Part shown: positions 4,521 to 64,000 of the stretch, one piece after another
How the letters are laid out: each line of letters opens with the position of its first letter
Numbering within the stretch: position 1 is the stretch's first letter
Assembly (NCBI GenBank): GCA_032718475.1
Contig: JAUCBJ010007417.1
Coordinates: forward strand, 36,373-100,372
Length of the DNA: 64,000 nucleotides
Origin: Nemertoderma westbladi
Lineage: Eukaryota > Animalia > Xenacoelomorpha
Direction: 5' to 3'
Made by a program: the position numbers and the translations under genes
The notes under the pieces: generated by a model
Database searches by the model: none
What the model was told of the DNA's origin: nothing
Seen by the model: the letters and a program-made list of their open reading frames with translations, nothing else

Positions 4521-7500
4521 GTACCCCTTAGTACATCCGTTATTGTTGCAGGTCAGACAGGGTGCGGTAAGACCACCCAAGTACCCCTTAGTACATCCGT
4601 TATTGTTGCAGGTCAGACAGGGTGCGGTAAGACCACCCAAGTACCCCTTAGTACATCCGTTATTGTTGCAGGTCAGACAGGGTGCGGTAAGACCACCCAG
4701 GTACCCCAGTATACCTGTTATTGTTGCAGGTCAGACAAGGTGTGGTAAGACCACCCAGGTACCCCCCAGGACATCCGATATTGTTGCAGGTCAGACAGGG
4801 TGTGGTAAGACCACCCAGGTACCCCCCAGTACATCCGTTATTGTTGCAGGTCAGACAGGGTGCGGTAATATCACCCAAGTACCCCTTAGTACATCCGTTA
4901 TTGTTGCAGGTCAGACAGGGTGCGGTAAGACCACCCAGGTACCCCATTACACCTGTTATTGTTGCAGGTCAGACAAGGTGCGGTAAGACCACCCAGGTAC
5001 CCCCCAGTACATCCGATATTGTTGCAGGTCAGACAGGGTGCGGTAAGACCACCCAAGTACCCCTTAGTACATCCGTTATTGTTGCAGGTCAGACAGGGTG
5101 TGGTAAGAAGACCACCCAAGTACCCCTTAGTACATCCGTTATTGTTGCAGGTCAGACAGGGTGCGGTAAGACCACCCAGGTACCCCTTAGTACATCCGTT
5201 ATTGTTGCAGGTCAGGCAGGGTGCGGTAAGACCACCCAGGTACCCCCCAGTACATCCGATATTGTTGCAGGTCAGACAGGGTGCGGTAAGACCACCCAAG
5301 TACCCCTTAGTACATCCGTTATTGTTGCAGGTCAGACAGGGTGCGGTAAGACCACCCAGGTACCCCAGTACATCCGTTATTGTTGCAGGTCAGACAGGGT
5401 GTGGTAAGAAGACCACTCAAGTACCCCTTAGTACATCCGTTATTGTTGCAGGTCAGACAGGGTGCGGTAAGACCACCCAGGTACCCCCCAGTACATCCGA
5501 TATTGTTGCAGGTCAGACAGGGTGCGGTAAGACCACCCAAGTACCCCTTAGTACATCCGTTATTGTTGCAGGTCAGACAGGGTGCGGTAAGACCACCCAG
5601 GTACCCCCCCAGTACATCCGATATTGTTGCAGGTCAGACAGGGTGCGGTAAGACCACCCAAGTACCCCTTAGTACATCCGTTATTGTTGCAGGTCAGACA
5701 GGGTGCGGTAAGACCACCCAGGTACCCCCCAGTACATCCGATATTGTTGCAGGTCAGACAGGGTGCGGTAAGACCACCCAGGTACCCCCCAGTACATCCG
5801 TTTTTGTTGCAGGTCAGACAGGGTGCGGTAAGACCACCCAGGTACCCCAGTACATCCGTTATTGTTGCAGGTCAGACAGGGTGTGGTAAGAAGACCACCC
5901 AAGTACCCCTTAGTACATCCGTTATTGTTGCAGGTCAGACAGGGTGCGGTAAGACCACCCAGGTACCCCCCCAGTACATTCGTTTTTGTTGCAGGTCAGA
6001 CAGGGTGCGGTAAGACCACCCAAGTACCCCTTAGTACATCCGTTATTGTTGCAGGTCAGACAGGGTGCGGTAAGACCACCCAGGTACCCCCCAGTACATC
6101 CGTTTTTGTTGCAGGTCAGACAGGGTGCGGTAAGACCACCCAAGTACCCCTTAGTACATCCGTTATTGTTGCAGGTCAGACAGGGTGCGGTAAGACCACC
6201 CAAGTACCCCTTAGTACATCCGTTATTGTTGCAGGTCAGACAGGGTGCGGTAAGACCACCCAGGTACCCCCCAGTACATCCGTTTTTGTTGCAGGTCAGA
6301 CAGGGTGCGGTAAGACCACCCAGGTACCCCTTAGTACATCCGTTATTGTTGCAGGTCAGACAGGGTGCGGTAAGACCACCCAGGTACCCCCCAGTACATC
6401 CGATATTGTTGCAGGTCAGACAGGGTGCGGTAAGACCACCCAGGTACCCCCCAGTACATCCGTTTTTGTTGCAGGTCAGACAGGGTGCGGTAAGACCACC
6501 CAGGTACCCCAGTACATCCGTTATTGTTGCAGGTCAGACAGGGTGTGGTAAGAAGACCACCCAAGTACCCCTTAGTACATCCGTTATTGTTGCAGGTCAG
6601 ACAGGGTGCGGTAAGACCACCCAGGTACCCCCCCAGTACATTCGTTTTTGTTGCAGGTCAGACAGGGTGCGGTAAGACCACCCAAGTACCCCTTAGTACA
6701 TCCGTTATTGTTGCAGGTCAGACAGGGTGCGGTAAGACCACCCAGGTACCCCCCAGTACATCCGTTTTTGTTGCAGGTCAGACAGGGTGCGGTAAGACCA
6801 CCCAAGTACCCCTTAGTACATCCGTTATTGTTGCAGGTCAGACAGGGTGCGGTAAGACCACCCAAGTACCCCTTAGTACATCCGTTATTGTTGCAGGTCA
6901 GACAGGGTGCGGTAAGACCACCCAGGTACCCCCCAGTACATCCGTTTTTGTTGCAGGTCAGACAGGGTGCGGTAAGACCACCCAAGTACCCCTTAGTACA
7001 TCCGTTATTGTTGCAGGTCAGACAGGGTGCGGTAAGACCACCCAAGTACCCCTTAGTACATCCGTTATTGTTGCAGGTCAGACAGGGTGCGGTAAGTCCA
7101 CCCAGGTACCCCTTAGTACATCCGTTATTGTTGCAGGTCAGACAGGGTGCGGTAAGACCACCCAAGTACCCCTTAGTACATCCGTTATTGTTGCAGGTCA
7201 GACAGGGTGCGGTAAGACCACCCAGGTACCCCCCAGTACATCCGTTTTTGTTGCAGGTCAGACAGGGTGCGGTAAGACCACCCAAGTACCCCTTAGTACA
7301 TCCGTTATTGTTGCAGGTCAGACAGGGTGCGGTAAGACCACCCAAGTACCCCTTAGTACATCCGTTATTGTTGCAGGTCAGACAGGGTGCGGTAAGACCA
7401 CCCAGGTACCCCCCAGTACATCCGTTTTTGTTGCAGGTCAGACAGGGTGCGGTAAGACCACCCAAGTTCCCCTTAGTACATCCGTTATTGTTGCAGGTCA

Positions 7501-8080
7501 GACAGGGTGCGGTAAGACCACCCAAGTACCCCTTAGTACATCCGTTATTGTTGCAGGTCAGACAGGGTGCGGTAAGAAGACCACCCAAGTACCCCTTAGT
7601 ACATCCGTTATTGTTGCAGGTCAGACAGGGTGCGGTAAGACCACCCAGGTACCCCCAGTACATCCGATATTGTTGCAGGTCAGACAGGGTGCGGTAAGAC
7701 CACCCAAGTACCCCTTAGTACATCCGTTATTGTTGCAGGTCAGGCAGGGTGCGGTAAGACCACCCAGGTACCCCCCAGTACATCCGATATTGTTGCAGGT
7801 CAGACAGGGTGCGGTAAGACCACCCAAGTACCCCTCAGTACATCCGTTATTGTTGCAGGTCAGGCAGGGTGCGGTAAGACCACCCAGGTACCCCCAGTAC
7901 ATCCGTTATTGTTGCAGGTCAGACAGGGTGCGGTAAGAAGACCACCCAAGTACCCCTTAGTACATCCGTTATTGTTGCAGGTCAGACAGGGTGCGGTAAG
8001 ACCACCCAAGTACCCCTTAGTACATCCGTTATTGTTGCAGGTCAGACAGGGTGCGGTAAGACCACCCAGGTACCCCAGTA
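4521..8080 (+). repeat. 60-bp tandem array (about 59 copies) made from the DHX9 Walker-A exon start and its acceptor-like AG|GT
   Basis: Unit GTACCCCTTAGTACATCCGTTATTGTTGCAGGTCAGACAGGGTGCGGTAAGACCACCCAA translates as [20 protein letters not shown]. The last copy runs directly into unique DHX9 coding sequence ([29 protein letters not shown]). Confidence 0.95.
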
Positions 8081-8495
8081 TATTCTCTCTCGGATGATCA
8101 GCCAAGGCAGGGCGGCTGACTGCAACATCGTGGTCACTCAACCACGACGGATTTCCGCGATTTCTGTTGCGGAACGCGTCGCAGCTGAACGAGGCGAGGA
8201 CATCGCTGATTCTGTCGGGTACTCGGTACGTTTCGAGTCCTACCTCCCACGGCCTCACGGCTCCGTAATGTTCTGCACCGTGGGCGTCCTCCTCAGGAAG
8301 CTTGAGTCCGGTCTCCGAGGAGTATCCCACGTAATTGTGGACGAGATCCACGAACGGGATTTGAACTCGGATTTTCTCCTCATTCTCCTTAAAGACATGG
8401 TCGCCAAGTATCCTGCTATGAGAGTGATTCTCATGAGCGCGACCATCGATACCTCCATGTTTAGCGATTACTTTGGCAATTGTCCAGTCATAGAG
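8041..8495 (+). CDS. DHX9: DHX9 / RNA helicase A (maleless) exon: RecA1 domain with motifs I, Ia, II, III
   Basis: (G)[15 protein letters not shown]...[16 protein letters not shown]...GYSVRFES...[39 protein letters not shown]...LMSATIDT. Acceptor TTGCAG at 8040 (phase 1, inferred as the last repeat copy); donor GAG|GTTTG at 8495/8496. Confidence 0.92.
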
Positions 8496-8699
8496 GTTTG
8501 TTTTTATATTATATCGTTCTTCCGTTCGTACTTTTAATACAAATATTGCATTCCATTTGGGAGACGTGATAATTTTGTTTTTTTTTTACAATAAAACTTT
8601 ACTTGAAAATTTAAATACTCTGTCTGTAGTATATATAACAACATGTTTATTGTGTTGAACTTTATACGTCGGTTGGGAATACTTTATGTGACTACCGGT

Positions 8700-10028
8700 T
8701 AGAGTTGTAACTGAGACCTGTTTTTCTTAATCCCGGTGTACCAGAGACCTACCCAGAGAATTATTTTGAAAAATACCGGAGACCAGAGCCGGAGATCAGA
8801 GACTTTGTTTATTTTTGTACTTACAATTTGATTACTCCCCTATAGCACAAACAGGTACATACGGCCTTAGAACTATTTTTCTATGGTTGAATTACAGTAA
8901 AGTAAATCCAACCCATTTCAACCTCTACTTACTTACCCATTGTAAGAAAATAAGCGCACGTACAGTTTTGGGGGCTTAATTAATATTAATTTGGTTATTT
9001 GTTTATTAATTCGTTCTTATTTTGTTACTACTACTACTACTACTACTTATGTTATCGTCTATTATCTATTATCTATTATCTTATGATGTTATCATCTATT
9101 TTGTTATTGTTAATAATATGTTACATAAATTTGTTTTGCGCCATAGGTACCGGTACTTTGTTAATTAAACTAAAGGCACTTATTTTACAATTGTTCAAAT
9201 CATATACATTTCAATGTACTATAAACTTAGTCATTTACGAATACTTAGTGCACCCAGGTATAGTGCTCTACTCGCCCCATTTACAAGCCTCGTTACGCTC
9301 GTTCTCTCCATTTGGTCGTCATATTATCTATCCAATAACAAATTGAATGGAGATCAGCCCTTTCTTTCACTTTTAAACTTTGAGTGCTCAAATTAAGCGC
9401 CCGTATCCTTAAAGAAGAACCATCTTTAGGTGCTAATTTAACTTAAAATTAAACGCACCTTAAATTAATTAAATAGAAGATTATCGGTACATTTATTAGA
9501 AATATAAATAGTGTAAAAGTAAATATATATAATTGTGTTGAATTGGTATATGAAAAATAGTTAAAAATGAAAGAAATAATTGTAAAAAATTTGTGAAAAA
9601 TAATCATCATTTCACATTTTGTGTTGTACAGGATCTATTTTTAAATATCTATTTCTGTCAAATCACTTATCTCTGGGTAAAATGCCTGTTTCAATACCCG
9701 GGAACCAGAGAACTATCCGGAGACCGAAAAATAGCCCGGAGAATCCAGAGACAGAGATCAATGACAAGTCTCTGTTTCAACTCTACTACCGGTATATACT
9801 AGAGTTGAAACAGAGACCTGTTTTTCTTAATCCCGGTGAACCAGAGACCTACCCGGAGAATTATTTTGAAAAATACTGTAGACCACAGATCAGAGACTTT
9901 GCTTATTTTTCTACAATAATAATTGATTATAGCACAAACAAGTACCGGTACGTAATTATATTACGTATTATATAGAGTTGAAACAGAGACCTGTCACTGA
10001 TCAAAAACAGGTCTCTGTTTCAACTCTA
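8700..10028. mobile_element. Cluster of fragments of a small TIR family (terminus TAGAGTTGAAACAGAGACCTG) in a DHX9 intron
   Basis: Related pieces at ~8700-8830, ~9690-9785 and ~9800-9950, plus a perfect 21-bp inverted repeat at 9973-9993/10008-10028. Confidence 0.6.
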
Positions 10029-10428
10029 GTATTATATTATATAATTACTTAAATATTGTAACTATTTTCTATACTCCAACACATTCGACCCTTAAAACCC
10101 AATAACAATCGAAAAAATAATCGCTGAGTACAGTTTAGGTTATTGTAACATTAATTTGTTTTCAGTTTTCCTACATTTAGGTAATTTGTCTATAATAAAA
10201 AAAGGCATTTACCTTCCAATGTTTCTATAAACTTGGTCATTTACTACTCCGCTCGCCACCTTTACAAGCCTCATTGCGCTCGTATCACCATTTGTTCTCC
10301 GTAATATATAACCTACGCCTACAACAAGGTGAAAAGAACTCAACCTTTACTTTTCAACTTTGTGCTCAAATTAAGCACACTTATCCTTAAAATAAGAACC
10401 CCTGTAGGTGCTAAATTATCTTAATTAA
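9218..10428 (+). repeat. Two diverged copies of a ~200-250-bp dispersed repeat (~9218-9470 and ~10225-10428)
   Basis: Shared blocks CTATAAACTT(A/G)GTCATTTAC, TTTACAAGCCTC, GTGCTCAAATTAAGC and TAGGTGCTAA in the same order. Confidence 0.6.
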
Positions 10429-10442
10429 ATCGGGTTAAATCA

Positions 10443-13400
10443 GGTCGAACCCACCCGGTTACGGTTTACTATTTCGTTGTGTTTTAGGTGTCCGGTCGGA
10501 CCCACCCGGTTACGGTTTACTATTTCGTTGTGTTCTAGGTGTCCGGTCGAACCCACCCGGTTACGGTTTACTATTTCGTTGTGATCTAGGTGTCCGGTCG
10601 AACCCACACGGTTACGGTTTACTATTTCGTTGTGTTCTAGGTGTCCGGTCGAACCCACCCGGTTACGGTTTACTATTTCGTTGTGTTCTAGGTGTCCGGT
10701 CGAACCCACCCGGTTACGGTTTACTATTTCGTTGTGTTCTAGGTGTCCGGTCGAACCCACACGGTTACGGTTTACTATTTCGTTGTGTTCTAGGTGTCCG
10801 GTCGAACCCACCCGGTTACGGTTTACTATTTCGTTGTGTTCTAGGTGTCCGGTCGAACCCACCCGGGTACGGTTTACTATTTCGTTGTGTTCTAGGTGTC
10901 CGGTCGAACCCACCCGGTTACGGTTTACTATTTCGTTGTGTTCTAGGTGTCCGGTCGAACCCACCCGGTTACGGTTTACTATTTCGTTGTGTTCTAGGTG
11001 TCCGGTCGAACCCACCCGGGTACGGTTTACTATTTCGTTGTGTTCTAGGTGTCCGGTCGTACCCACCCGGTTACGGTTTACTATTTCGTTGTGATCTAGG
11101 TGTCCGGTCGAACCCACCCGGTTACGGTTTACTATTTCGTTGTGTTCTAGGTGTCCGGTCGAACCCACCCGGGTACGGTTTACTATTTCGTTGTGCTCTA
11201 GGTGTCCGGTCGAACCCACCCGGTTACGGTTTACTATTTCGTTGTGTTCTAGGTGTCCGGTCGAACCCACCCGGTTACGGTTTACTATTTCGTTGTGTTC
11301 TAGGTGTCCGGTCGAACCCACCCGGTTACGGTTTACTATTTCGTTGTGTTCTAGGTGTCCGGTCGAACCCACCCGGTTACGGTTTACTATTTCGTTGTGT
11401 TCTAGGTGTCCGGTCGGACCCACCCGGTTACGGTTTACTATTTCGTTGTGTTCTAGGTGTCCGGTCGAACCCACCCGGTTACGGTTTACTATTTCGTTGT
11501 GTTCTAGGTGTCCGGTCGAACCCACCCGGTTACGGTTTACTATTTCGTTGTGTTCTAGGTGTCCGGTCGAACCCACCCGGTTACGGTTTACTATTTCGTT
11601 GTGTTCTAGGTATCCGGTCGGACCCACCCGGTTACGGTTTACTATTTCGTTGTGTTCTAGGTGTCCGGTCGAACCCACCCGGTTACGGTTTACTATTTCG
11701 TTGTGTTCTAGGTGTCCGGTCGAACCCACCCGGTTACGGTTTACTATTTCGTTGTGTTGTAGGTGTCCGGTCGAACCCACCCGGTTACGGTTTACTATTT
11801 CGTTGTGTTCTAGGTGTCCGGTCGGACCCACCCGGTTACGGTTTACTATTTCGTTGTGTTCTAGGTGTCCGGTCGAACCCACCCGGTTACGGTTTACTAT
11901 TTCGTTGTGTTCTAGGTGTCCGGTCGGACCCACCCGGTTACGGTTTACTATTTCGTTGTGTTCTAGGTGTCCGGTCGAACCCACCCGGTTACGGTTTACT
12001 ATTTCGTTGTGTTCTAGGTGTCCGGTCGAACCCACACGGTTACGGTTTACTATTTCGTTGTGTTCTAGGTGTCCGGTCGAACCCACCCGGTTACGGTTTA
12101 CTATTTCGTTGTGTTCTAGGTGTCCGGTCGAACCCACCCGGTTACGGTTTACTATTTCGTTGTGTTCTAGGTGTCCGGTCGAACCCACCCGGGTACGGTT
12201 TACTATTTCGTTAGGTGTCCGGTCGAACCCACCCGGTTACGGTTTACTATTTCGTTGTGTTCTAGGTGTCCGGTCGGACCCACCCGGTTACGGTTTACTA
12301 TTTCGTTGTGTTCTAGGTGTCCGGTCGAACCCACCCGGGTACGGTTTACTATTTCGTTAGGTGTCCGGTCGAACCCACCCGGTTACGGTTTACTATTTCG
12401 TTGTGTTCTAGGTGTCCGGTCGGACCCACCCGGTTACGGTTTACTATTTCGTTGTGTTCTAGGTGTCCGGTCGAACCCACACGGTTACGGTTTACTATTT
12501 CGTTGTGTTCTAGGTGTCCGGTCGAACCCACCCGGTTACGGTTTACTATTTCGTTGTGTTCTAGGTGTCCGGTCGAACCCACCCGGTTACGGTTTACTAT
12601 TTCGTTGTGTTCTAGGTGTCCGGTCGAACCCACCCGGGTACGGTTTACTATTTCGTTAGGTGTCCGGTCGAACCCACCCGGTTACGGTTTACTATTTCGT
12701 TGTGTTCTAGGTGTCCGGTCGAACCCACCCGGGTACGGTTTACTATTTCGTTGTGTTCTAGGTGTCCGGTCGAACCCACCCGGGTACGGTTTACTATTTC
12801 GTTAGGTGTCCGGTCGAACCCACCCGGTTACGGTTTACTATTTCGTTGTGTTCTAGGTGTCCGGTCGAACCCACCCGGGTACGGTTTACTATTTCGTTGT
12901 GTTCTAGGTGTCCGGTCGAACCCACCCGGGTACGGTTTACTATTTCGTTAGGTGTCCGGTCGAACCCATCCGGTTACGGTTTACTATTTCGTTGTGTTCT
13001 AGGTGTCCGGTCGGACCCACCCGGTTACGGTTTACTATTTCGTTGTGTTCTAGGTGTCCGGTCAAACCCACCCGGGCACGGTTTACTATTTCGTTGTGTT
13101 CTAGGTGTCCGGTCGGACCCACCCGGTTACGGTTTACTATTTCGTTGTGTTGTAGGTGTCCGGTCGAACCCACCCGGTTACGGTTTACTATTTCGTTGTG
13201 TTCTAGGTGTCCGGTCGAACCCACCCGGTTACGGTTTACTATTTCGTTGTGTTCTAGGTGTCCGGTCGGACCCACCCGGTTACGGTTTACTATTTCGTTG
13301 TGTTGTAGGTGTCCGGTCGAACCCACCCGGTTACGGTTTACTATTTCGTTGTGTTCTAGGTGTCCGGTCAAACCCACCCGGGCACGGTTTACTATTTCGT

Positions 13401-13707
13401 TGTGTTCTAGGTGTCCGGTCGGACCCACCCGGTTACGGTTTACTATTTCGTTGTGCTCTAGGTGTCCGGTCGGACCCACACGGTCACGGTTACGGTTTAC
13501 TATTTCGTTGTGTTCTAGGTGTCCGGTCGGACCCACCCGGTTACGGTTTACTATTTCGTTGTGTTCTAGGTGTCCGGTCGAACCCACCCGGTTACGGTTT
13601 ACTATTTCGTTGTGATCTAGGTGTCCGGTCGAACCCACCCGGTTACGGTTTACTATTTCGTTGTGTTCTAGGTGTCCGGTCGAACCCACCCGGTTACGGT
13701 TTACTAT
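10443..13707 (+). repeat. 51-bp tandem array (about 64 copies) of the DHX9 3' splice site plus the first 36 nt of the exon
   Basis: Unit TTCGTTGTGTTCTAG|GTGTCCGGTCGAACCCACCCGGTTACGGTTTACTAT. The last copy continues as VSGRTHPVTVYYLEDCVE, which follows PVIE of the previous exon in frame. Confidence 0.95.
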
Positions 13708-14022
13708 CTCGAGGATTGCGTGGAACTCGTCGACTTTAAACCGCCGCCGCCGCGGAAGAAGGGCCGCGGTAACCGTGACGACGACGAAGACGAACCCGAT
13801 CTGGAAGCCGTCGGAGAGGACGACGAGAACCTGAACCTGATCGTGTCTGACGCGTACAAAGCCACGACCAAGTGGGCCGTCACCCACATGTCGGAGAAGG
13901 AGTTGAGTTTCGAGTTGATCGAGGCTCTTCTGCGGCACATCTCGAGTCTCAACCAACCCGGCGCTGTGCTCATCTTCCTTCCCGGGTGGTCCCTCATCCA
14001 GGCTCTCCTAAAACACCTCCAG
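13672..14022 (+). CDS. DHX9: DHX9 exon: RecA1-RecA2 linker and motif IV
   Basis: VSGRTHPVTVYYLEDC...SEKELSFELIEALL...GAVLIFLPGW. TAG| acceptor at 13671, CAG|GTTTG donor at 14022; 351 nt, phase 0-0. Confidence 0.93.
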
Positions 14023-14679
14023 GTTTGTTATTGTTATCGGTATTAACTTAAAAATATTTAAATTCAATCAATATTGGCAAACCATCAATCAGTAATCGAT
14101 ATAGTTTCTATATTTCACAAAAAAATTTATTACTTAATTATTAAATTTATTTGCTTATTTTTTATTCAGTTTGGGACTTTTGGAAATGACCTGGTATAAT
14201 TATTGTTCACCTTTCCTGGTTAACGTGCTACTACCATATTAAGTGTTAGTGAGGCTGAGCCCAACCGAATACAAACAGTAGTCAGTATAGTTCAGTCTTA
14301 TGTTTAAATTTGTTTGAATATAAATGTAAATTTATTTTTGGTGTTTTTTACATTTACATTAATTCTTTTTTGTTTTACATTAATTGTTAATTTTGTCAAC
14401 TATTAATTCGTTGTACGGGCAAAAAATCGGCCAAAAAATGTACATCCGTCTGGAGCAGGAACCGGTTTTTCTCAAAAAACCGGCCGAATAACCGGCACAC
14501 CCCTCGAAGTAATTAATTACTAATTAGTAATTATAAAATAAAAATAATATAATATAAATAATATAATAATAATATAAACTAATATAAAAATAAATAAAAT
14601 TAATTTGTAATTAATATTACAAATTAAAGATTTTGAATAAGTCGCATCCGCCGATTCTGTAGAAAGATGTAGAAGAGGA

Positions 14680-15172
14680 ATGAATATTAATTAAACTTAT
14701 ACAGTAAACCTAACCTTTAAATGAATATTAATTAAACTTATACAGTAAACCTAACCTTTAAATGAATATTAATTAAACTTATACAGTAAACCTAACCTTT
14801 AAATGAATATTAATTAAACTTATACAGTAAACCTAACCTTTAAATGAATATTAATTAAACTTATACAGTAAACCTAACCTTTAAATGAATATTAATTAAA
14901 CTTATACAGTAAACCTAACCTTTAAATGAATATTAATTAAACTTATACAGTAAACCTAACCTTTAAATGAATATTAATTAAACTTATACAGTAAACCTAA
15001 CCTTTAAATGAATATTAATTAAACTTATACAGTAAAACCTAACCTTTAAATGAATATTAATTAAACTTATACAGTAAACCTAACCTTTAAATGAATATTA
15101 ATTAAACTTATACAGTAAACCTAACCTTTAAATGAATATTAATTAAACTTATACAGTAAACCTAACCTTTAA
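14680..15172. repeat. 41-bp AT-rich minisatellite (about 12 copies)
   Basis: Unit ATGAATATTAATTAAACTTATACAGTAAACCTAACCTTTAA, near-perfect copies; not derived from an exon. Confidence 0.92.
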
Positions 15173-16075
15173 TTAATTACCGAGTATATTTATATCGAAT
15201 TAATTCTAAATCAAATGATAAATAATAATATAATATTATTTGGTGGTTTGGTTACCAAAATAGTTATCTCTATCCGTGTAAGTAATATTTAATTAATAAA
15301 TTATTGATTTTATTTTTTGCATTAATTTTCAGTCACTTTTATTTATTATTTTAATCAAACGAAAGTTTCCAAATTCGTTTCAATTTTAACACAAAAACTT
15401 CACTTACCCTATTATCCTATCGTAGTTAGTAAAATATTTGCAATTTGTTTAACAAATTTAACAATTTATTTATTTTTGTAGATAAAGGTTTATATTTAGT
15501 GGTTAAAGGGGAAATATAGAAGATTCTTTCTTACAGAATCAGCCTCCTTATTAACCTTTAGGAAAGCAACGGGCAGTAAAAGTTAAAAATCGCAATATTC
15601 GTTTCCGGTGTTGGGCCACCGGGCACCGGCTGCTATAGAAATTGGCTTTAAAGTCACTAAAAATATCAACAATAATAATTTATCTTATAGGAATGAAAAC
15701 TGTATATATTTCATTTATTTTATGTCGCTGAAGAAGAAGATGTCTCAATAGCGCCATAATATAGTTTTTATAATGTATTATTGTTGCTACGTCTTTGCCG
15801 ACTTTGCAAAGCTGTGCCCAACAATAAATTAATAGTTTGTTATAATAGCATCTGTACTATATCATAATAATACATCGAACAATTAATAGTGACTTAGTAT
15901 TAGTTTTTACCCTAAAACTGTACAGAACTGCATCATATTCAACGTGCACCTGATGGGTTATCTCATTATGATGTTTTAGAAGCGCAAAATTTGTAGAAAA
16001 TTATTGTTTGTTTCTGGAAATGGATTTCCCTTCACGGATTATTTCATAATTAATAATTATTTTTATTTCCGATAG

Positions 16076-16575
16076 GCTCACTCTTTGTTCGGTAACGGAC
16101 AGATGTTCCGACTGCTTGCTCTCCACTCCCAGATCCCCAGACAGGATCAACGCAGGGTATTCGACCACACCCCTCCCGGAGTCACCAAGATAATCATATC
16201 GACAAACATCGCGGAATCCTCTATAACCATCGACGACGTTGTCTTTGTTATCGACTCATGTAAGGCCAAGATTAAACTCTTCACGTCGCACAACAACATG
16301 ACCAACTACGCGACGGTGTGGGCCTCGCGAACCAACCTCGAGCAGCGACGGGGCCGGGCGGGTAGGGTGCGGCCGGGTTTCGCCTTCCACCTGTGCTCGG
16401 CCGCGCGCTACGCCCGACTCAACGAGCACGCAGTCCCCGAGATCCTCCGGACCCCGCTGCACGAGATCGCGCTCTCGGTCAAACTGCTGCGACTCGGTGA
16501 CATCCGCGCGTTCCTCGCCAAGGCCCTCGAACCGCCTCCTATAGACATGGTGGTTGAGGCTGAAGTCACTCTCAG
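16076..16575 (+). CDS. DHX9: DHX9 exon: RecA2 motifs V and VI and start of HA2
   Basis: LHSQIP...[14 protein letters not shown]...[16 protein letters not shown]...[13 protein letters not shown]...[17 protein letters not shown]. Acceptor GATAG| at 16075, donor CAG|GTATA at 16575 (phase 2). Confidence 0.95.
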
Positions 16576-18790: not shown

Positions 18791-20315
18791 GGAGATGAAG
18801 GCGTTGGACGTGCAGGATGAGTTGACGGCTCTCGGACGACTTCTCGCCCGGATGCCAATAGAACCGCGACTCGGGAAGATGGTCATAATGGGGAGCATCT
18901 TCGGTGTGGCCGACGCGATGGCCGTAATCGGGGCGATGACCTGCTTCCCGGAGCCGTTCGAGAGCCCCGGCGAGCGACGCAAACTGACGTTCGCGCAGCG
19001 CGCCATGGCCGGAAGCCGGTGTAGCGACCACGTGGCGTTACTCACCGCCTTCCAGGGATGGGAGGATGCGCGTACTGTAGGCGGCGACCGCGGCGAGGAG
19101 ATGTACTGCGAGCGGAAGCTGCTGAATATGTCGACCCTTCGGATGACCTCGGAAGCGGTGAACCAACTCAAGGATATCCTAATGGCCGCGGGATTCCCGG
19201 AAGAGCGGTTACTCCCCACGCAGTACAGCAACACCGGCCCCGACAGTAAACTCGATCTGGTCATCTCGTTGCTCACACTCGGTCTCTACCCCAACGTTTG
19301 TTTCCACAAGGAGAAACGAAAGATCATCACGCAAGGCGGTCGACTCGCTTTGGTTCATAAACTCAGCGTTAATTGCTCGAACGAAGGCCGCGTATTTCCT
19401 TCGCCGTATTTCGTTTTCGGCGAGAAGATTCGCACTCGAGCTGTTTCCGCGAAACAGATGACCATGGTGACCCCGGTGCAGCTTCTATTGTTTGGTTGTC
19501 GGAATGTGCAGAGTGAAGGTGGTCTCGTTCGTATGGACGATTGGTTGAACTTTCGGATGGAGCATAAGGAAGCCGCCAATGTTGTCGCTATTCGGCAGGT
19601 GATGGAGGACTTTGTGATGAGGGTTTGTTCGGATCCCGATATGTTGGCTGGGGATCTTGGGGAAGAAGATCGGGAGTTGTGCGAGGTGGTTCGGTTGCTG
19701 TCCCGGCCGAGTATAGGGGCGAGGAGTGCGGAGGAGGTGGGGGCAATGGGGGGCGACCAGGGGGGGCCGTCGGCGAAACGGATGCGGCCGAGTGGGGGTG
19801 TGTACGGGGGAGGGGGGTATGGGGGTGGGGGGTACGGGGGAGGGGGTGGGGGGTACGGGGGAGGGGGCTACCAAGGTAATAGGGGGTTTAGGGGTGGTGG
19901 TGGTGGTAGGGGTTACGACTTTGGTGGGGCGGCCCGTGGTGGGGGGTTTGGCGGCGGAGGGGGGCCCCCAGGGGGCTTCGATTCTGGATCTGGAGAGAGT
20001 TACTCGGGCGGTCCGTATATGGGCGACGGGGGCGCTACTGATGGGAACGCCGCCCAGAACGGAGGCGACGGCCGTTGGGGCGGCCCTAGGGGCGGTTCCT
20101 GGGCGGCCAGGCCGTCGTTACAAGGGAGCGGTGCCCCCCCGCCGGGTGGCCCAAGGGGGGGCGGACCCCCAGGGCCCAGGGGGTTCAGGGCTGGGCGGGG
20201 GATAGTTGGTGCTGGTCCCTATGGGGCCGATTTTGGGGCGAATAGGGGGGCTCCGCGAGGCGCCCCTAGGGGCAGTTGGCGGCACCAAGGATACGGTTCT
20301 AGCACGGGTTACTAG
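18791..20315 (+). CDS. DHX9: DHX9 terminal coding exon: HA2, OB-fold, basic NLS-like motif and Gly/RGG-rich tail; stop TAG at 20313-20315
   Basis: Acceptor TTCCAG| at 18790 completes AG|G (Arg). ELTALGRLLARMPIEPRLGKM...SDHVALL...GLYPNVCFHKEKRK...SPYFVFGEKIRTRAVSAKQMTMVTPVQLLLFG...PSAKRMR, then YGGG/RGG repeats typical of DHX9. Confidence 0.95.
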
Positions 20316-21791: not shown

Positions 21792-24645
21792 TTATGGTTG
21801 TGCTAAGGTTGATAAGGGTGGACAAAGTGTACATGAAAGACAGTGATAGCGGTCCGAGCATGAGTGCTGGCAGAATCGGCAGACGCAGTTCTGTGACAGC
21901 GGGTGAAAAAGAGTTTGATCGGTGCAGAGTTTAAAATGAAAACCATGGGAAGTTGTCCGAGTTACAACGTGTCGGTTTTTCTGGTTTTGGCGTTTCCATA
22001 TGTCCGAGGTGAAAGCGGGCCCGTTTATAAAACCTTCTTGGATGAAATTTAATTCGCGTTCCTCTCGGTGTACTCTGTATAATGAGATTGCGTTTCGATT
22101 GAAGGTATTTGGGTTGCGTTCTAGAATGCACTCGACAAACATTTGTTGATCAATAAGCTTTAGTGCCATAGTGGAAGATGCGGATTTGTGTAAGGCCAGC
22201 ATTGATTTAGCGAATGCTGATTTTATTTTATCTACTTCTTTTAAATGTGCCAGTGTAAAATAAGGACCGATTTCTGTGAACGCGTATGTTACCAAAGGGT
22301 CTATTTTAGAATTAAAAATTTTGATGGCAGTGTCAATTGATAATAAACGGAGGTGCTGTATTGAGCCAATAATTCCAAATGCCTTTATTTTCTTTAATTG
22401 AATATGCTGTGTGAATGATAATGAAGGCTGGAGAGTAATTCCTAGGTATTCGTATTTATTCTCGAGTTTGACTATATTATTTCCATATGTGAATTTGTCA
22501 TCTTTGCTGTATCGACCGCCCTTGCGAAATTTAATAATCTTTGTTTTCAATAAATTTACTTCCATACCGTTTAATTTACACCAGTTGGATATAACATCGA
22601 GAGCTGATTGGACGTCGCATCTGTTACTGGAGTATATCACCAAATCGTCTGCATAGAATATGAATTTGAGTAAGGCAGCTACATTTCTTAGTGCCGTTGC
22701 TAGGTCGGCAATGAATAAAATAAAGCAGGTGGGGCTCAGACAGTCCCCCTGTAAAATCCCTCGTAATTGTTCAATGAGGTTCGAGTAACGGAGACCATCA
22801 AAGATGCGGAAATAATTACATAACAATTCCTTTATTATGTCGAAGGTCTTTCCCCTCACACCTAAGTTGTAGAGCTTGTTTAGTAATACTTTACGGCTTA
22901 AAAGGTCAAACGCTTTCCGGAAATCAACAAATAATGCATATGTTATTCTTGATTGTCTAGTGGGCGAGTTAAAGGCTGTTGTAATGTCCTGAAGTAACTT
23001 CGATATAGCATGTATTGTAGATCGTTGAGGGACAAAACCAAACTGTTCGAGTGGAATGAAGTTAGCGAGAGCGCTGCGTATTCGCTTGTTAATAGTCGAC
23101 GTGAGAATTTTCAGAAGAACACACAGAAGAGCTATCCCGCGGTAGTTGTCGGGGTCCGTGATTTTTCCAGATTGAAGGCAATTTCCCAATATCAAAGCAG
23201 ACGTTATAGAGTAGAGTTATTAATGATAAAAGTTGTGGAATCCCCTGTTTTATGTGCTCATAGTATATGCCGTCATGTCCGCACGCCTTGTTGTTTGGTA
23301 GGTCGGTAATTGTCTCTAGAATTTCCGATTCTGTAAACTGTTCATTGAACCACTCGTCCAGCTCGCGTTCGGGATCAGATGAAACCGGGGTAGTAGCCAC
23401 TCCTTCAGGATCATTTGGAGTTCCTAGTAAGTCCGTAAAATGTTCCTCGAGCCGTGTAGCATCAATGGGAGCAATCGACGGTTTATGTTTCTGCTTGAAA
23501 AGGGACCAGGGAGTAATTTCGACGCGGACGATCAGATCCAATAGTTTATCATTGTCGTAGGCGTTTCGTTTATCCTTTACTAGAGATTTATATTGCTTCC
23601 GTAGACGCCAGAAGTGTGTGTTAGCGTCTGTAGAAACGTGACGAGACAACATAGCAGCCATTAATGTAGATTTTTGATTTCGGCATTCTTCGTCAAACCA
23701 TGGCTTCCCATGGGTTACTCGGGGGCGTATCAAATTGGAAGACCCGGTTATAGCATCATTTAGAAGTAGTGTGGCCGTGTTAATATCGCTATGAGTTACT
23801 AGATTTTCAAACACAAGTTGAAGATTCGCATGGTTAGAAAGTTTACCAGAATCAATTTTTCGTGTATATCGATGTGGCCTGCTGGGGATCTGAAGGTTTG
23901 AGTCTGTATTAAGATATATGTTTGCAGAGACTCTCTGATGTTTACGTATTGGACTGAGGTGGATTTGCAGCTGTGGTAGACAGCTTGGAGCCACCGAGGG
24001 GTAACGAATAAACACTAGATCTATTACACTTTCTCCCTGGGGTGAGATGTAGGTAGGAGCAGATGGATCATTTAAACAATAGAATCCGAGTTGATTTAAA
24101 TTATCTGATAAACATGCTCCACGGTTACCCTTATCCAATCGACAGTTGAAATCGCCTGACACCACTATAGGTTTACTGTAGTCAGCGAATGAGATTGCTC
24201 GGTTAATAGAGAGAGTTATATCTTCTAGCGCAGTATCAGGGTTAAAGTAAAACACACTAAAATATCCCGAATTTGTTTTAATTGCTATGTAATTCCGATC
24301 CAGAGACACGATAGATGGATTCAAACACGGTTTGCATAGAATAATTATACCTTCGGACGGCCGACCCCGGGTGCGTTTCAGCGCGGGTTGGATAAATGAG
24401 TAATAGTTTGGAAAATCAATTTCTGACTTACAATATAAAGTTTCGGTGAAGAGTAAAACATCTGCACTACTGCTTAGTTCATTGTCATCGACATTATCGC
24501 GAATAAACTGTAGGCCCTCAACATTCCAGAGAACAATGTTGAGGAGGCGCCCCGTACCTACTGGGGGTTGTGTTGTTGGGTTTGATTTGAGTCGTTGAGA
24601 TGAGAGTCCGAATGAATAAGTGCCATTTGTCCCGTAGGAGGCCAC
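21792..24645 (-). pseudogene. LINE ORF2 (endonuclease, RT, C-terminal Cys/His cluster) with one frameshifting deletion near 23165
   Basis: WNVEGL, FTET, SGDFN, SVIDL; NYRGIAL, QFGF, FVDFRKAFD, GILQG, FYADD, YEYLG; CRFC..DRYHCLSC. GKLPSIWK joins almost directly to DPDNYRG, lacking the usual intervening PIxKxG segment. Confidence 0.88.
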
Positions 24646-25367
24646 ATTTGGTTGCCGAGATCCCCGTTCTCTCGCGGTCTGACTCCATACCGAGCACGTT
24701 CGTCACCGCGTAATTGATAGTTTCGGATGGTTATTCCGCTATCCCAAAGTAGGGGATCCATGATTCGATCGCGATCGGACTGGTTGCACACAATGTGAAA
24801 GCTATTAAACGTTGGGTTTTCCATTCTCGACGTTACAGGGTTGACTTCACTAAAGGGTACTCCTTCAGCGGTTAGATACGATGTGATATCTTCAGCAGTT
24901 GTTGACGGTACTAGTCTGCCGATATGTATGTGGGCATTACGTGGGGGTGATGGTGCTGCGCGAAGAGGGCCTCCGACCTTAACGCCGCGAGCGACTGGCG
25001 CGGTGCCCGGGGGTCTATAATATCGAGGAGGTCCTGGAGGGGGGGCAGATGTTTGTGTACCGGGTGGGAGTCCCTGAGTGTTACCGGTAGGCCTTGCAGC
25101 ATCAGCATATGAAACCGAGGTACTGGTAGGTGGGGGCGGGGTAACGGATCTGGAAGACTGGAGCTTTATCAGGTTGTCTTTCGAGGATATCGATTCCTGT
25201 TGAGCATTTGCGAGCCTACCCAAACAGGAGGTGAACATGGCCGACATGTCCATCAGTTTATCCGTTACTAGTTTCTCATCTTCATTAGATACACTCTTTT
25301 TCAATTTGGCATTCCTGAATAGTCTGAGGATTTCTTCTTGGTGCGCGCTAAATTTATCCGGATCCAT
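24558..25367 (-). CDS. LINE ORF1 protein (helical N-terminus, SYADAA motif, Pro-rich linker, RRM-like C-terminal domain)
   Basis: 269-aa ATG-initiated ORF immediately upstream of and overlapping ORF2; HIHIGRLVPSTTAEDITSYL...FNSFHI...LWDSGITIRNY resembles LINE ORF1 RRM domains. Confidence 0.75.
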   Translation of the reverse strand: MDPDKFSAHQEEILRLFRNAKLKKSVSNEDEKLVTDKLMDMSAMFTSCLGRLANAQQESISSKDNLIKLQSSRSVTPPPPTSTSVSYADAARPTGNTQGLPPGTQTSAPPPGPPRYYRPPGTAPVARGVKVGGPLRAAPSPPRNAHIHIGRLVPSTTAEDITSYLTAEGVPFSEVNPVTSRMENPTFNSFHIVCNQSDRDRIMDPLLWDSGITIRNYQLRGDERARYGVRPRENGDLGNQMWPPTGQMALIHSDSHLNDSNQTQQHNPQ

Positions 25368-25607
25368 AAGAAGATCAGCAGTACAGCAGTGAGTCAGTCA
25401 CACAGCAGTACCAAGCGTACAGTCTTACAGTCCCAGTTGGACAAGTAGGCAATGTCAAAGGTTGTATGTGTGCTGTGTATTTAATAGTTAATAGACACCT
25501 TAATAATTTGTCTATGTCGTGGGAACGTGACCTCTCTGGTAGAGCGGCTCTGTAGACAATTATATATATCATATCATATCATATCATATATGATATGATA
25601 TGATATA

Positions 25608-26736
25608 CAGTTGTGTTCTCAATTAAAGTCCATTCTTCAATCTGTTCAATCTGTTCAATTTCCTCAATCTGTAAAACTCTTTCATGGCACCGCAAGTTTC
25701 TAGCCTACTGAGTGATTGACAGACGGTCGTGGTTGGCTCCACAAAGTAAAGCTGTTTGTTGATTTGACTGAGTAGATTAATGCAGGGTTCAGATAAATTA
25801 TGGGGCACTTGCAAGCCAATAAAGTAAATGTATTTTAGTAAGCATTATTTACAGTATATTACAAATTAAATGTTTACTAACTGATTACATTTAACATGGT
25901 ATAGCAAATAAATGTACTATTTAAAAATAAAAACGTTTAAAATATCTAAAGCGGCTAAAGCGATAACGAACGGTTTTTCTAAACATAAACTATCTAAGGG
26001 ACATGCAGCACATTAAATATTGTATATAAGAGATTGCATTATAATGATCTAATGATTATGATTATATTTTTTCATTCCTTGTTGTGTTATTTGCATGCTT
26101 TTATTTGTATATTTAAATTAAATAATTGAATAATAATTAACATAAATATATTTAATTATAAACAATTATTTATTGAAAAATTATTTCTACAGAACAATAC
26201 ATTCTACCAAGCATTTTTCCAGGGGCTTATTCGTTTATTGTAATAATTAATGCAGGGAATAGTGCGGTTAGCCAAGTCAAATAATCTACAGTACATTGTA
26301 TAGACTGCAACTGGAAAGGAGGAATTTAACTACAGTATTCTACAGTACACTACCGCAATTCAGTAGAACACCACACACACACCAACTGTATTGTTACAGT
26401 GCCTGTCAATCAATCTAAGGCTTTGCGGGATCCCATTAGTAGCCTGGCCTATAGTTGTTTGATGCAGCCGCCATGCTCTTTGAGCTTAGTCTACCCGCCT
26501 AGCCGCCCTGCTCTTTATTCCCCTGCCCTATACTAACCCATGGCATATCTGCACAGAGGGATACTTCGGCTCTACATTTTCAATCTGTTAAATCTGATCA
26601 ATCTAGACAGAAAGTCTGGATTGAAGAAGTTGAACGTAGGTTCAATTTCATCAATCTAACTATTATTTTTCTACGAGAGTAGATTGATTCGGATTGATGC
26701 AGATTGAAGAATGGATTTTAATTGTGAACAAGACTG
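25608..26736. mobile_element. Non-autonomous Tc1/mariner-type element (MITE), ~1.13 kb
   Basis: TIRs CAGTTGTGTTCTCAATTAAAGTCCATTCTTCAATCTG and (reverse complement) CAGTCTTGTTCACAATTAAAATCCATTCTTCAATCTG, flanked by TA at 25606-25607 and 26737-26738; no transposase ORF. Confidence 0.82.
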
Positions 26737-26970
26737 TATATCTTATATATATATATCTTTGATATATATCATATCAAAGATATATATCAGATATATAACA
26801 ACTCCCCTTTCTTTCAGTTTAATGTCTGGACTATAGTTAATTATCCTATAATTTCCTTTCCTTTCCTTTCCTTTCGAGTTTAAAATATAACTTTCTTCTT
26901 ATTTAAAATGTTTCAATCACAATTAAACTTTTCCAGTTTAAAATATAACTTTCGTCCTAATCAAAATATT

Positions 26971-29900: not shown

Positions 29901-30190
29901 CGGAGCAGAATATTACCCGCTCAGTACATTCATTTATACCTATTTTTAGTTTCATATCAAAAGATCCTAAACTTGATAGTTTATTTCCATTAACAGATTG
30001 AAGATTTTCCTTCATTATTGACAGTTTATTTGTCCTTATACCAAGTTTCCTTAAGATTTGGGCTCCAGCAACAGTAGCCTGTGCACCTGTATCAGCAACT
30101 GTTTTAATACAACCTAGGTGGCTGTTTCCGGTTGTATAGAAATCAATTGAGATCGTTGGTTTCTCTAATTCATCTCTGTAAAAGCTTTTG
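26971..30190 (-). CDS. Gypsy Pol polyprotein (protease, RT, RNase H, integrase), frame intact
   Basis: The listed 1014-aa ORF has LDAQKGYWQ, PMG, IVDD, CDAS, TDHRPL, H..H/C..C, DLF..SDGGPQF..NGLAE. The same frame upstream of 30015 reads KTVADTGAQATV (aspartic protease, ~30070-30105). Confidence 0.92.
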
Positions 30191-39346: not shown

Positions 39347-39899
39347 TTCGCATGTAGCGACAAAATAATAAACATGATAAAAAAATGTGCACGCATTAAT
39401 TACACATGTGTGAAATAATCCAGTTAAATATTGCACAATTGTAGAGAGATTAGTGTTCAAGACAAATTCTGCAGTAAAATAGCAATAAGTAAAATCGATT
39501 AAACGAAAGACCTTATAGTGGTTTTGAAAATAAGTGCTTTAAATAAAATTAATGTTTGAATATACTATATTAAAAAGAAAGATACAGTAGCTGGTCCTTA
39601 TTGATTTTATTGAATTTCCCATCAGCTGCTTATGTGGAGTATGCCTACTGCAAGAGTGACTAAGATACCAAAGTATATAATAAACATATACAATAAGCAT
39701 ACTGTAGTATAATTGTAACTATACCAGATCAACTAATATCATCATTTGATTTAATTCGCACGAGGCGACAATACCGGGTAAATGTAAATAAAAATGCACG
39801 CAAATGCACAATAAAAACAGCTGGCTAAAAATATAAAGTATGTGATTAGAATATGGATTGATATTATGTATATGTATTGATGATATAGGGATTGATATT

Positions 39900-41640
39900 A
39901 TTATATATATGATATGGATTAAGATTGATAGAATCCAAATAAAATCATAGTCAGACAAAGCGAATTATCGGTCAAAGTATTGCTGGATCCGCCTTCTTTT
40001 GGTACTAAAGGGAACATTGCACCTAAAGCAGTTTTGGATGAAATTCACCCCACCCAATTCTGGGATTGTAAGTGATCCCGACTCGACCCGTGTCCTAAGT
40101 TGTCTCCTGTCATACCTGGCCGTGCAGAGAGACCTTACGCTTGGAAGTGGATACAGGGAGCTGCAAGTTTGCTGACAAGAGCTCAGACCACCATGGGATT
40201 TAATTGTTGAGTGAGAAAGGTATCGACAGACAAGAAAGTTACATTCTGTGGCATTCGGACCATTGCAGGCACGTTGCAAGCAGCACATGTTGTCATAAGC
40301 GATCACAGCGGAGATTGGAGTTGTGTTAGTAATCTTGTGCAAAAACAGCATTTGGCACGTAACAGCTTACGTGCATCAGTCCACGCAGCACCTTCCTATA
40401 GGAAATGTCAAGTTCGCGCAGTTCCTTGTCAGTAAGCCGTCCCACCAGGAATCTCATCTTGTACAGTAGCGATGGGACCGCCGCTGTGTTCCATAGAGCG
40501 AAGAGTGTGCTCGGGTTTATTCTCCTTGCGGTCCAACCCTTCTGGTGGAAGGTCTCTGAGATTATTGTTAGATATCGTTTGAGTTCCTTCAATACTGCGG
40601 TCCTTTGTATATTTAGTGAGACGCCAAGGAATGATAATGACTTTGTTGGCTGTATAAGTACACCATTTATTTTAAGAAAACATGGAATCCCCTGACCATT
40701 ACGTCCAGATCCTAGGATATAAGTCCATTCTGTCTTTGAGCCTTCCACAGATAGACCCACACGTGCGAGTTCACAAGAGATTATCACTATCATATCTTCT
40801 AGATCCTTAACTGACTCCCCGGTTAAAAATAGATCATCCGCGTAACAAAAGAGATGAGAGTATGATGCCAGTTTTCCTGGACCGAATCCCGATTCCTTCA
40901 GTTTATCTGGTAAGAATCCGATATAGAAGGTGAATAGTACAGGTGAGATTAATGAACCTTGCTTGAGGCCACGAGTCAACTTGATTCCAATGGACTCAAC
41001 CAACTCCCCAAATTTCAGATGAATCATTGTTTTCCTATAGTAGTCAAGCAGGACTGCACAGATATGGGGATTTAATACTTCCAGTAGCTTGTCATGGAGA
41101 ACATGAAATTCGACACTGTCGAATGCTGACTTGATGTCCAGCTTGCACAGGATTGAATTCCTCCCATTTTCCCGTTGCATCTCCAATTGTTCCATGATTA
41201 CTGCTAGTGCAATATCTGTACCCAACCTTTTCCTATAGGCGAATTGCGAGCGGGGTTTAGGAAGTGCCATGAGGTATTCTGACAGAATCACAGCCTCAAA
41301 CACTTTGGAAAGAATGCTTATAGAGGCGATAGGCCTGAATGAGTTGGTTTTTAGTGGATCCCTTTGTTTTCCTTTGAAAATGTTCGTGACTACAGTCCTG
41401 CCAAAGCAAGAGGGGACCTTGCCCAGTCTGAGACAGGCATTCAATAGCTTGGCTATTGTGTCTGTAGCAATGTCCAGACTTACTAGGAGTATGTGCTCTA
41501 TTACTAAAGATCCAAAATCTGGCGCTTTCCCTGGGGATATGGCTAGGATAGCCCTCCGTACTGTAGCTTTGGACACCGAAGGAATGTTACTGTGCTGGCA
41601 CGCCACTGATATATTATGCTCCACTTCCCGTGTAAGATTT
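39900..41640 (-). mobile_element. 5'-truncated LINE fragment (RT domain and frameshifted C-terminus)
   Basis: ORF 40326-41624: GKAPD, SFRPIA, QFAYR, LDIKSAFD, GLKQG, CYADD, SFLG. It continues in ORF 39965-40351; no endonuclease domain is seen. Confidence 0.85.
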
Positions 41641-42071
41641 TCGTTTGCATCTGCCTGTTAGTTTTTAGTGTTGTATTGTAAAGTTTTGTACTGTATTATA
41701 TTGCTTAGTATTGTATTGTAAAGTTTTGTACTGTATTACATTGTTTAATATCGTATTATGTACCTTAGATACATTGGACAACAATAAATAATAATAATGG
41801 ATATCTTAAAAATAAAAAAAAATAAAAAAAAACTTACTGAGTCTGTAGTATATACTCAAGTCATGCATTTGACACCAAATACAATATTTACCAGTTGTTT
41901 CGGTTTAAGTGTATGGGCGTTGTTTGGGATAAGATTGTTTTGGTTAGGAGGTTGGGCGTTTTGGGTTTATTTATTTACAATTATTATTTAACCATCCACC
42001 TAATAGTGTATTTATTATGTATCATTAAACAGATTCTTCGCCAACTACGTGTCTCTCCCCACACCTGAAAC

Positions 42072-42300
42072 ATTGGAACTAAATTCGCATCCATTGCCAT
42101 TGGAACTAAGTTCGCATCCATTGGAACTAAATTCGCATCCATTGGAACTAAATTCGCATCCATTGGAACTAAATTCGTTTTCGTTTTTCTCTAGTTATTG
42201 GAACTAAGTTCCCCTAAATTGGAACAAAATTCGCCAAAATTGAAACTAAATTCGTTTCCATTGGAACTAAATTCGCATGAGGCTTAAATTAGAACTAAGT
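42072..42300. repeat. ~20-bp tandem/clustered repeats CATTGGAACTAAATTCGCATC, probably transposon subterminal repeats
   Basis: About 10 TTGGAACTAA(A/G)TTCG units just upstream of the UNC80 exon. Confidence 0.65.
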
Positions 42301-42404
42301 ACGGGGAATCTTAATTTTTATAGTAGACTACGGGAATCGCATTTGCAGATAGCCCCCCGATCTGTAATTTTAATTGCTATTTCTTTTTCACTTTCTCATA
42401 ATAG

Positions 42405-42599
42405 TCGAGGCATGTGCCTATGGCGATCCAATCGTTTCTATGGCGACAAACAAGTCCGTTCCTGAGGTCAAAGATTACCCGCCTATATGAAGCGTCATGT
42501 CTCTCATTCGTCAAGGTGATCGTTGAGAACAAACTAATTGGTATAAGTCCAGTACTGGTGGAAGCCATGGAGTCTGTTAGTCGTCACCAACTGATAGAG
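42405..42599 (+). CDS. UNC80: UNC80 (NALCN channelosome subunit) N-terminal exon
   Basis: SRHVPMAIQSFLWRQTSPFLRSKITRLYEASCLSFVKVIVENKLIGISPVLVEAMESVSRHQLIE matches, from recall, the conserved UNC80 N-terminus (IPLPIQTFLWRQTSAFLRPKLGKQYEASCVSFERVLVENKLHGLSPALSEAIQSISRWELVQ). Pyrimidine tract + TAG| at 42404 and donor GAG|GTAGGT at 42599; 195 nt, phase 0-0. An in-frame ATG at 42420 is an alternative start. Confidence 0.88.
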
Positions 42600-63500: not shown

Positions 63501-64000
63501 ATGGAGTCTGTTAGTCGTCACCAACTGATAGAGGTAGGTAGGTACTGGTGGAAGCCATGGAGTCTGTTAGTCGTCACCAACTGATAGAGGTAGGTAGGTA
63601 CTGGTGGGAGCCATGGAGTCTGTTAGTCGTCACCAACTGATAGAGGTAGGTAGGTACTGGTGGGAGCCATGGAGTCTGTTAGTCGTCACCAACTGATAGA
63701 GGTAGGTAGGTACTGGTGGGAGCCATGGAGTCTGTTAGTCGTCACCAACTGATAGAGGTAGGTAGGTACTGGTGGGAGCCATGGAGTCTGTTAGTCGTCA
63801 CCAACTGATAGAGGTAGGTACTGGTGGAAGCCATGGAGTCTGTTAGTCGTCACCAACTGATAGAGGTAGGTAGGTACTGGTGGGAGCCATGGAGTCTGTT
63901 AGTCGTCACCAACTGATAGAGGCAGGTAGGTACTGGTGGAAGCCATGGAGTCTGTTAGTCGTCACCAACTGATAGAGGTAGGTAGGTACTGGTGGAGCCA
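42552..64000 (+). repeat. 52/56-bp tandem array (about 400 copies, over 21 kb, runs off the window) of the last 48 nt of the UNC80 exon plus its 5' splice site
   Basis: Unit GTACTGGTGGAAGCCATGGAGTCTGTTAGTCGTCACCAACTGATAGAG|GTAG(GTAG). The first copy is the exon's own 3' end (VLVEAMESVSRHQLIE). Confidence 0.96.

Follow-up and report, generated by a model that had tools for sequence, protein, structure and literature searches.

The 64,000-nucleotide stretch of the Nemertoderma westbladi genome analysed here (contig JAUCBJ010007417.1 of assembly GCA_032718475.1, positions 36,373 to 100,372; hereafter the window, with coordinates counted from its first letter) carries parts of two conserved genes, DHX9 and UNC80, and three large tandem arrays, each spanning an exon border of one of these genes. 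Four DHX9 exons lie on the forward strand: exon A (8041-8495) extends from the Walker A motif to the DEIH region and has a phase-1 acceptor (AG|GT) after 8040 and a donor after 8495, exon B (13672-14022) has a phase-0 acceptor that also reads AG|GT, exon C (16076-16575) has no array at either border, and exon D (18791-20315), the last one, encodes the glycine-rich tail and the stop. Joined as 8043-8495, 13672-14022, 16076-16575 and 18791-20315, they form a single open frame of 942 codons without stop or frameshift, in which the motifs are kept and which shares 60% identity with Branchiostoma DHX9 across 815 columns and has a gap-free A/B junction. Additionally, exon A matches the Pfam DEAD family (E 1e-7), and the best matches of exon D carry the name ATP-dependent RNA helicase A or RNA helicase in every case in which the source gives one; the N-terminal 400 residues lie outside the window. 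In a quick tree of 32 rows (27 picked from 120 homologues, four loci and the window sequence), the predicted protein showed 58-65% identity to all animal rows (63% to Branchiostoma, path 1.09) and stood on a long branch within no well-supported group; none of the hits is closely related, and the sequence is not from a lancelet.

UNC80 is represented by one N-terminal exon (42405-42599, forward strand), open over 65 codons, with a donor after 42599 and an inferred acceptor position, which matches human UNC80 from PDB (E 2e-19) and the Pfam UNC80_N family (E 3e-24, well above the cut-off). Homology supports both gene identities proposed in the first-pass annotation. Both genes are intron-poor, as seen in the 1.5-kb last exon of DHX9 and in the continuity of UNC80 at reference residue 47, where many animals have a break. 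Their exons show a GC content of 0.70 at third codon positions, a CpG ratio of about 1 (no depletion) and an overall GC content of 0.47-0.63, within AT-rich introns (0.25-0.33). Intron-poor genes, GC-rich exons and undepleted CpG are hints of intron turnover and of little gene-body methylation.

Tandem Repeats Finder placed array 1 at 4519-8076 (period 60, 59.2 copies), array 2 at 10443-13711 (period 51, 64.7 copies) and array 3 at 42552-63984 (period 52, 399.1 copies), all on the forward strand, and together they make up 44% of the window, the share originally estimated. Unit decomposition also agreed with the earlier description of three arrays with one architecture. Array 1 (4519-8078) holds 59 acceptors in 59 copies of a 58-63 nt unit, composed of the 20 nt before the AG and the first 38-40 nt of DHX9 exon A, including its Walker A codons, and its last copy merges into the real exon A. 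Array 2 (10443-13707) holds 64 acceptor copies in units mostly of 51 nt, each with 15 nt of intron end and 36 nt of DHX9 exon B. Array 3 (42552-64000) begins with the real end of the UNC80 exon, contains at least 391 donor copies and continues beyond the window edge; its unit joins the last 48 nt of the UNC80 exon to 4 or 8 further nt (52 or 56 nt), and 389 of the 391 donors read GTAGGT and the other two GCAGGT. Overall, the units consist of 36-48 nt of exon and 4-20 nt from the other side of the border, so that border and splice signal are repeated together, the match level within arrays is 92-94%, and AG|GT is present at all three array-bearing junctions. The three units are mutually unrelated in sequence, in line with the independent origins first proposed. 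The real exon had been identified with the terminal copy of each array, and this assignment was upheld, since coding homology runs on only from that copy. The arrays extend only into the intron, as had also been stated, which is nearly automatic for a gene that survives. The UNC80 exon encodes a histidine at 42588-42590, where the compared homologues have tryptophan, and this codon lies inside the stretch copied by array 3.

The interior of the arrays is itself repetitive, with runs of 10 unit types that recur in array 1 and of 18 unit types that recur in array 3, recurring blocks that differ from each other, and perfectly repeated stretches as long as 661 and 1015 nt. Such block re-duplication and long exact repeats fit what would be expected from unequal exchange. 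Altogether 43 unit types were distinguished, and their variants are region-specific, as with an inserted T (71 of 75 cases between 44000 and 54000). Arrays 1 and 2 are truncated at their far ends: array 1 starts mid-unit immediately after a (TGAA)n run (4484-4519) that is presumably the 3' tail of a long interspersed nuclear element (LINE), a LINE-type retroelement at 222-4519 (forward strand, endonuclease and reverse transcriptase frames at 222-2366), while array 2 starts mid-unit, 1.9 kb from exon A, behind a truncated high-copy repeat. The remnant of this repeat and a short filler occupy 10262-10442; the repeat is cut at about 10429, shows raised depth, and is joined from 10429 to 9467 in a contig of sequencing run X2. 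No unit remnant was found past the cut ends of the two arrays, which indicates that their original left ends have been lost or lie outside the window.

A fourth array (14679-15172, 41 bp x 12, no strand assigned) is AT-rich, lies mid-intron with 99% matches and no exon link, and represents an almost perfect, intron-only counterpart to the exon-derived arrays. At the other six of the nine splice sites in the window no echo was detected, the longest word shared with the site's own intron being 6-8 nt. The rough chance that at least three of four arrays (at least 10 copies, period above 30) overlap one of nine splice sites is about 8e-6, a value calculated over 35,436 non-array bases in one window picked post hoc and therefore a measure of local enrichment only. 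The claim that arrays form at exon borders was thus sustained in the sense that three junction-anchored arrays exceed local chance, and was qualified by the fourth array and by the echo-free sites. Moreover, array units compared with five other regions of the window gave no match above shuffled controls, and metagenome contigs scanned for the exact array 3 unit gave no match.

Most decoy sites would disrupt the reading frame if used. In array 2, each of the 63 decoy acceptors leads into a stop that precedes the end of exon B (at codon 17 for 57 of them), the 58 decoys of array 1 give a frameshift in 40 cases, a stop in 16 and an open frame in two, and translation through the first UNC80 donor would end at a stop 16 codons later. 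As nearly every decoy breaks the frame, mis-spliced RNA would mostly be degraded. Likely only the exon-adjacent site, the first donor or the last acceptor, is spliced. Recursive splicing was also considered; it is unattractive at array 2, where the regenerated donor would match the U1 consensus at only 4 of 9 positions, and at array 1 the match would be 7 of 9.

The arrays were also present in the contigs of short-read runs. The DHX9 region was found in four runs, which cover two samples and two studies, one sample being possibly that of the assembly itself; runs X2 and X3 come from one sample and X1 from the other, and run X5 was set aside, as exon A was uncovered in it and only shared repeats were covered. 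Exon A was recovered in single contigs at a depth of about 30 in X1 and X2, and at the head-to-tail junction of array 1 the depth was 756+276 in X1 (exon A 29.7), 219+76 in X2 (exon A 30.5) and 138+89 in X3 (exon A 6.7). Depth was also raised for the first unit of array 2 in all three of these runs. Array 3 unit contigs had depths of 2350 and 2125 in X1, where both the 52- and the 56-nt forms occurred (2350+166 for the unit depth), with high values also in X3 and lower ones in X2. Cover of 42300-42551, the UNC80 exon beyond the unit, was nil in 3 of 3 runs, in records that were pre-filtered and hence uninformative on this point. Units at high depth in two samples and two studies indicate that the arrays are not inventions of the assembly, a concern that the first-pass annotation had raised, and this check speaks to presence and not to length.

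Taken together, these observations make it probable that the window contains three separate splice-site-spanning minisatellites, of the kind called "mirages" or "exon stuttering", which arose as short duplications of AG|GT borders, were enlarged by unequal exchange and are tolerated since only the exon-adjacent site is spliced. The starting point of each array was likely a short stretch duplicated locally across an exon border of the AG|GT type, the first step would have been slippage at a few shared bases, and growth by unequal exchange likely followed. Tolerance would be explained by the choice of the first donor or last acceptor combined with the decay of mis-spliced RNA.

The origin of the UNC80 donor can be followed further. 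A 565-nt contig with single-copy depth (31.8 in X2, where exon A has 30.5, and 10.6 in X3) holds an array 3 unit with the inserted-T variant and departs after donor base +3 into unrelated sequence (the exit contig). The array 3 unit begins with GTA, as does the donor, so that plain slippage from one GTA triplet to the other would duplicate exactly 48 exon bases and keep the frame. This plain 48-nt form was found at none of the 391 array 3 junctions, all of which carry one or two additional AGGT. Scored against the U1 consensus, the exit donor and the plain 48-nt junction both match at 5 of 9 positions and the array donor at 7 of 9. We suggest that the first UNC80 duplication was likely a copy of 48 bases, all of them exonic, lying between two GTA triplets, and that an AGGT slip at the new repeat junction likely made a stronger donor, now found in every copy including the gene's own. 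This slip would have come early, giving the first copy a strong donor and shifting the frame of later copies. Should the UNC80 array really end where the exit contig leaves it, a repeat junction would have created a stronger donor, a step towards intron remodelling; as an alternative, the intron may always have begun with GTAG, and the exit would then be a later cut that fell by chance at +3. In the exit contig, 30 loose letters follow behind window position 42602, with an acceptor-like pyrimidine run that ends in CAG 25 bases past the donor, and the eight bases visible after it would read Ile-Thr-Ile/Met in frame. As a weak lead, if this CAG precedes the next UNC80 exon, the intron before the array was very short. 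A more far-reaching version, which we regard as doubtful, would have this lineage routinely amplifying exon borders at satellite scale, with arrays that rebuild the splice sites they copy, an in-frame UNC80 duplication of 48 bases that slipped by one AGGT, gained a stronger donor and became an intron of more than 21 kb whose working splice site is a repeat product, and perhaps a similar history for the DHX9 Walker A intron.

Several points weigh against the minisatellite reading as set out above. Survival of the genes does not by itself explain why three of the four arrays lie at junctions, and the first duplication of arrays 1 and 2 is unreadable, their far ends being cut. The units offer no structural cause for their expansion, as there was no hairpin signal (z +0.75 to +1.1) and no three-tier G-quadruplex motif in them; a loose two-tier G pattern occurs 397 times in array 3 but is unspecific, and neither hairpins nor G-quadruplexes are supported as a cause. 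Concerning splicing, the choice of the terminal copy as the spliced site is drawn from homology and not from RNA, the two array 1 decoys nearest to exon A (7918 and 7981) leave the frame open and could serve as acceptors, and human cases in which the nearest pseudo-donors are used are cited in PMC1557585. The unit-to-exon depth ratios of arrays 1, 2 and 3 (about 35, 21 and 85-108 in X1 and only 10, 4 and 4 in X2) fall below the copy numbers in the window, and are not themselves copy numbers. Finally, the exit contig occurs in one sample only (X2/X3) and is absent from the X1 contigs, is linked to the UNC80 locus solely through the unit sequence, and could mark a later deletion or insertion.

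Among the other explanations, the birth of whole introns through exon sequence duplicated in tandem across AG|GT, with the arrays as new exon-derived introns, is unlikely and would be most plausible for array 1. The 18 nt before the array 1 glycine codon read TSVIVA in frame, comparable to NSVVIIR in homologues, with a profile score of 6.1 that only 0.9-1.5% of simulated acceptors reach in a post hoc comparison; however, this score is below those of all 27 distinct homologue contexts (11.4-20.1), and none of 113 DHX9 proteins has serine at position -5, so that the resemblance provides a weak post hoc hint. The positions of the array-bearing introns look lineage-specific, on slender evidence: the DHX9 locus L062 is intronless at the Walker A and A/B sites, locus L039 is intronless at the A/B site, and among 52 UNC80 hits, 33 cover the region, of which 31 continue beyond the donor site and none ends at it, with 13 short ones ending at reference residue 46-47, where the gene of this animal is unbroken. 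Nevertheless, these two distant loci are the only genomic DHX9 loci in the comparison, the others among 80 being mostly other DEAH helicases or intronless, and full-length proteins are silent on introns. Besides, the 15 intron bases of array 2 are unlike the end of exon A and include an in-frame stop, and the array 3 exit, read straight on, lacks the proline found in 31 of 31 continuing UNC80 homologues. A unit derived wholly from exon sequence is not seen in array 2, is likely for array 3 at its origin and is weakly possible for array 1. Coding sequence does not resume at the far ends of arrays 2 and 3: the array 3 exit is off the UNC80 frame and array 2 abuts a repeat remnant. The far side of array 1 lies outside the window. 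In the intron-gain model, as summarised in PMC3443670, exon sequence containing AG|GT is duplicated, which is also the case here, but the model needs a wholly exonic unit and an exon that resumes, in contrast to array 2 and the array 3 exit. Consequently, the classical duplication model invoked in the first-pass annotation does not hold for array 2, with its in-frame stop and gapless A/B join, is opposed for array 3 by the single exit contig, and could apply to array 1 only.

It is quite unlikely that a dedicated process targets splice junctions here, such as transcription- or RNA-coupled repair or rolling-circle copying of small circles. Such a process would account for three of the four larger arrays lying at three of nine splice sites in one window, for the AG|GT at all three junctions and for the apparent coincidence of the array 3 breakpoint with the donor. 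On chicken dot chromosomes, 3.4% of introns are affected (PMC12954441). However, the local evidence comes from one window selected after the fact, a bias for GC-rich DNA together with the removal of within-exon expansions could yield the same pattern, given GC-rich exons within AT-rich introns, and a purely intronic array is also present.

Inflation of the array lengths by assembly, chiefly of the 21-kb array, is very unlikely. The depth ratios below the window counts, the long exact repeats and the lack of any single read across an array would favour inflated lengths, but the repeated blocks differ mutually, there are many unit types with region-specific variants, and contig depth, which varies several-fold across two runs from the same sample, is not copy number. 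A 15-nt gap is present in one X3 contig, at some point within 9973-10464, and contigs cannot size arrays. It is highly improbable that the arrays damaged the genes, through the use of decoys or because UNC80 is a dead copy, as the single UNC80 exon in view, with its histidine at a conserved tryptophan, and the DHX9 N-terminus missing from the window are outweighed by the intact DHX9 frame and motifs, by the open UNC80 exon with its strong Pfam match, and by the long branch of the whole DHX9 protein, on which substitutions are expected.

The remaining features of the window are mostly mobile elements. Inside the 3' part of the LINE near array 1, the segment 2602-3934 has GC-rich inverted ends with 15-bp repeats (at 2602-2715 and at 3817-3934), holds a 36-bp x 7 repeat internally, and looks like a non-autonomous DNA transposon. 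The roughly 20 kb between DHX9 and UNC80 (21792-41657) are filled with retroelements: a LINE (21792-24702, reverse strand), a long terminal repeat-type element with reverse transcriptase, RNase H and integrase (26971-30237, reverse strand), a DUF1759-bearing element that we take to be BEL/Pao-like (33754-39346, forward strand) and a further reverse transcriptase (40326-41657, reverse strand). Two short 21-bp arrays (42097-42276), which precede the UNC80 exon by some 130-300 bp, are unrelated to it.

The architecture found here is already described, in amphioxus mirages, chicken exon stuttering and human exon-spanning minisatellites, and the three arrays belong to this kind by their structure, having tandem exon copies in the adjacent intron, the border spanned and the coding sequence in view intact. 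The kind itself is known and apparently widespread, and our results extend exon stuttering and mirages to another animal lineage. What is notable in this window is the copy number, the occurrence of three cases in two neighbouring genes and the donor that was likely made by the array; at least 391 near-identical donors or 63 near-identical decoy acceptors offer a naturally occurring, extreme case for testing first-donor scanning and exon definition. No case with hundreds of copies or with an array-made donor was found in the literature consulted, and the supplements of PMC12954441 and PMC3087553 may contain some. Repeat-bearing UNC80 homologues (P0140, P0155, P0122 and P0126) were considered as further examples and discarded, as they have unrelated repeats or whole-exon duplications.

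Chicken exon stuttering, with 236 introns in 115 genes and a mechanism given as unknown (Hron et al. 2026, PMC12954441), is similar in that a lateral exon part with its donor or acceptor is repeated in tandem into the adjacent intron while the coding exon stays intact; in the text of that article, in which the term "mirage" does not appear, the exon part has a median of 36 bp, compared with 36-48 here, spans reach 23,555 bp, and purely intronic arrays occur alongside, as in this window. In contrast, the chicken tandems are imperfect and belong to GC-rich dot chromosomes, whereas those described here match at 92-94% and lie in AT-rich introns of an invertebrate. The article reports 1-44 copies (median 4), against 59, 64 and at least 391 copies here, the last being roughly nine times the chicken maximum, and presents length polymorphism as a main feature. 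Amphioxus mirages, reported in PMC3087553 and PMC3902484 for Adh3 (through a citing paper), the globins BflGb6 and BflGb9, troponin C and PGBD5, share the minisatellite-like tandem duplication of intron-exon boundaries on the 5' and 3' sides with the repeated AG/GT; they reportedly leave splicing undisturbed and were proposed as a route of intron gain, but BflGb6 has 3-6 units of 150-160 bp, and the copy numbers here are ten to hundred times higher. Splicing left intact by such copies has precedent in these two sources and in PMC1557585, which describes human donor-spanning minisatellites of 5-25 copies, namely the 37-bp variable number tandem repeat in F7 intron 7 and those of 6-16, CBS, lamin B2 and PDGF. 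As in array 3, the real donor is followed there by identical pseudo-donors, and the most upstream one is used in human cases; the F7 unit, however, is mostly intron (4 exon and 33 intron bases), whereas the UNC80 unit contains 48 exon bases and a donor that was likely born at the repeat junction.

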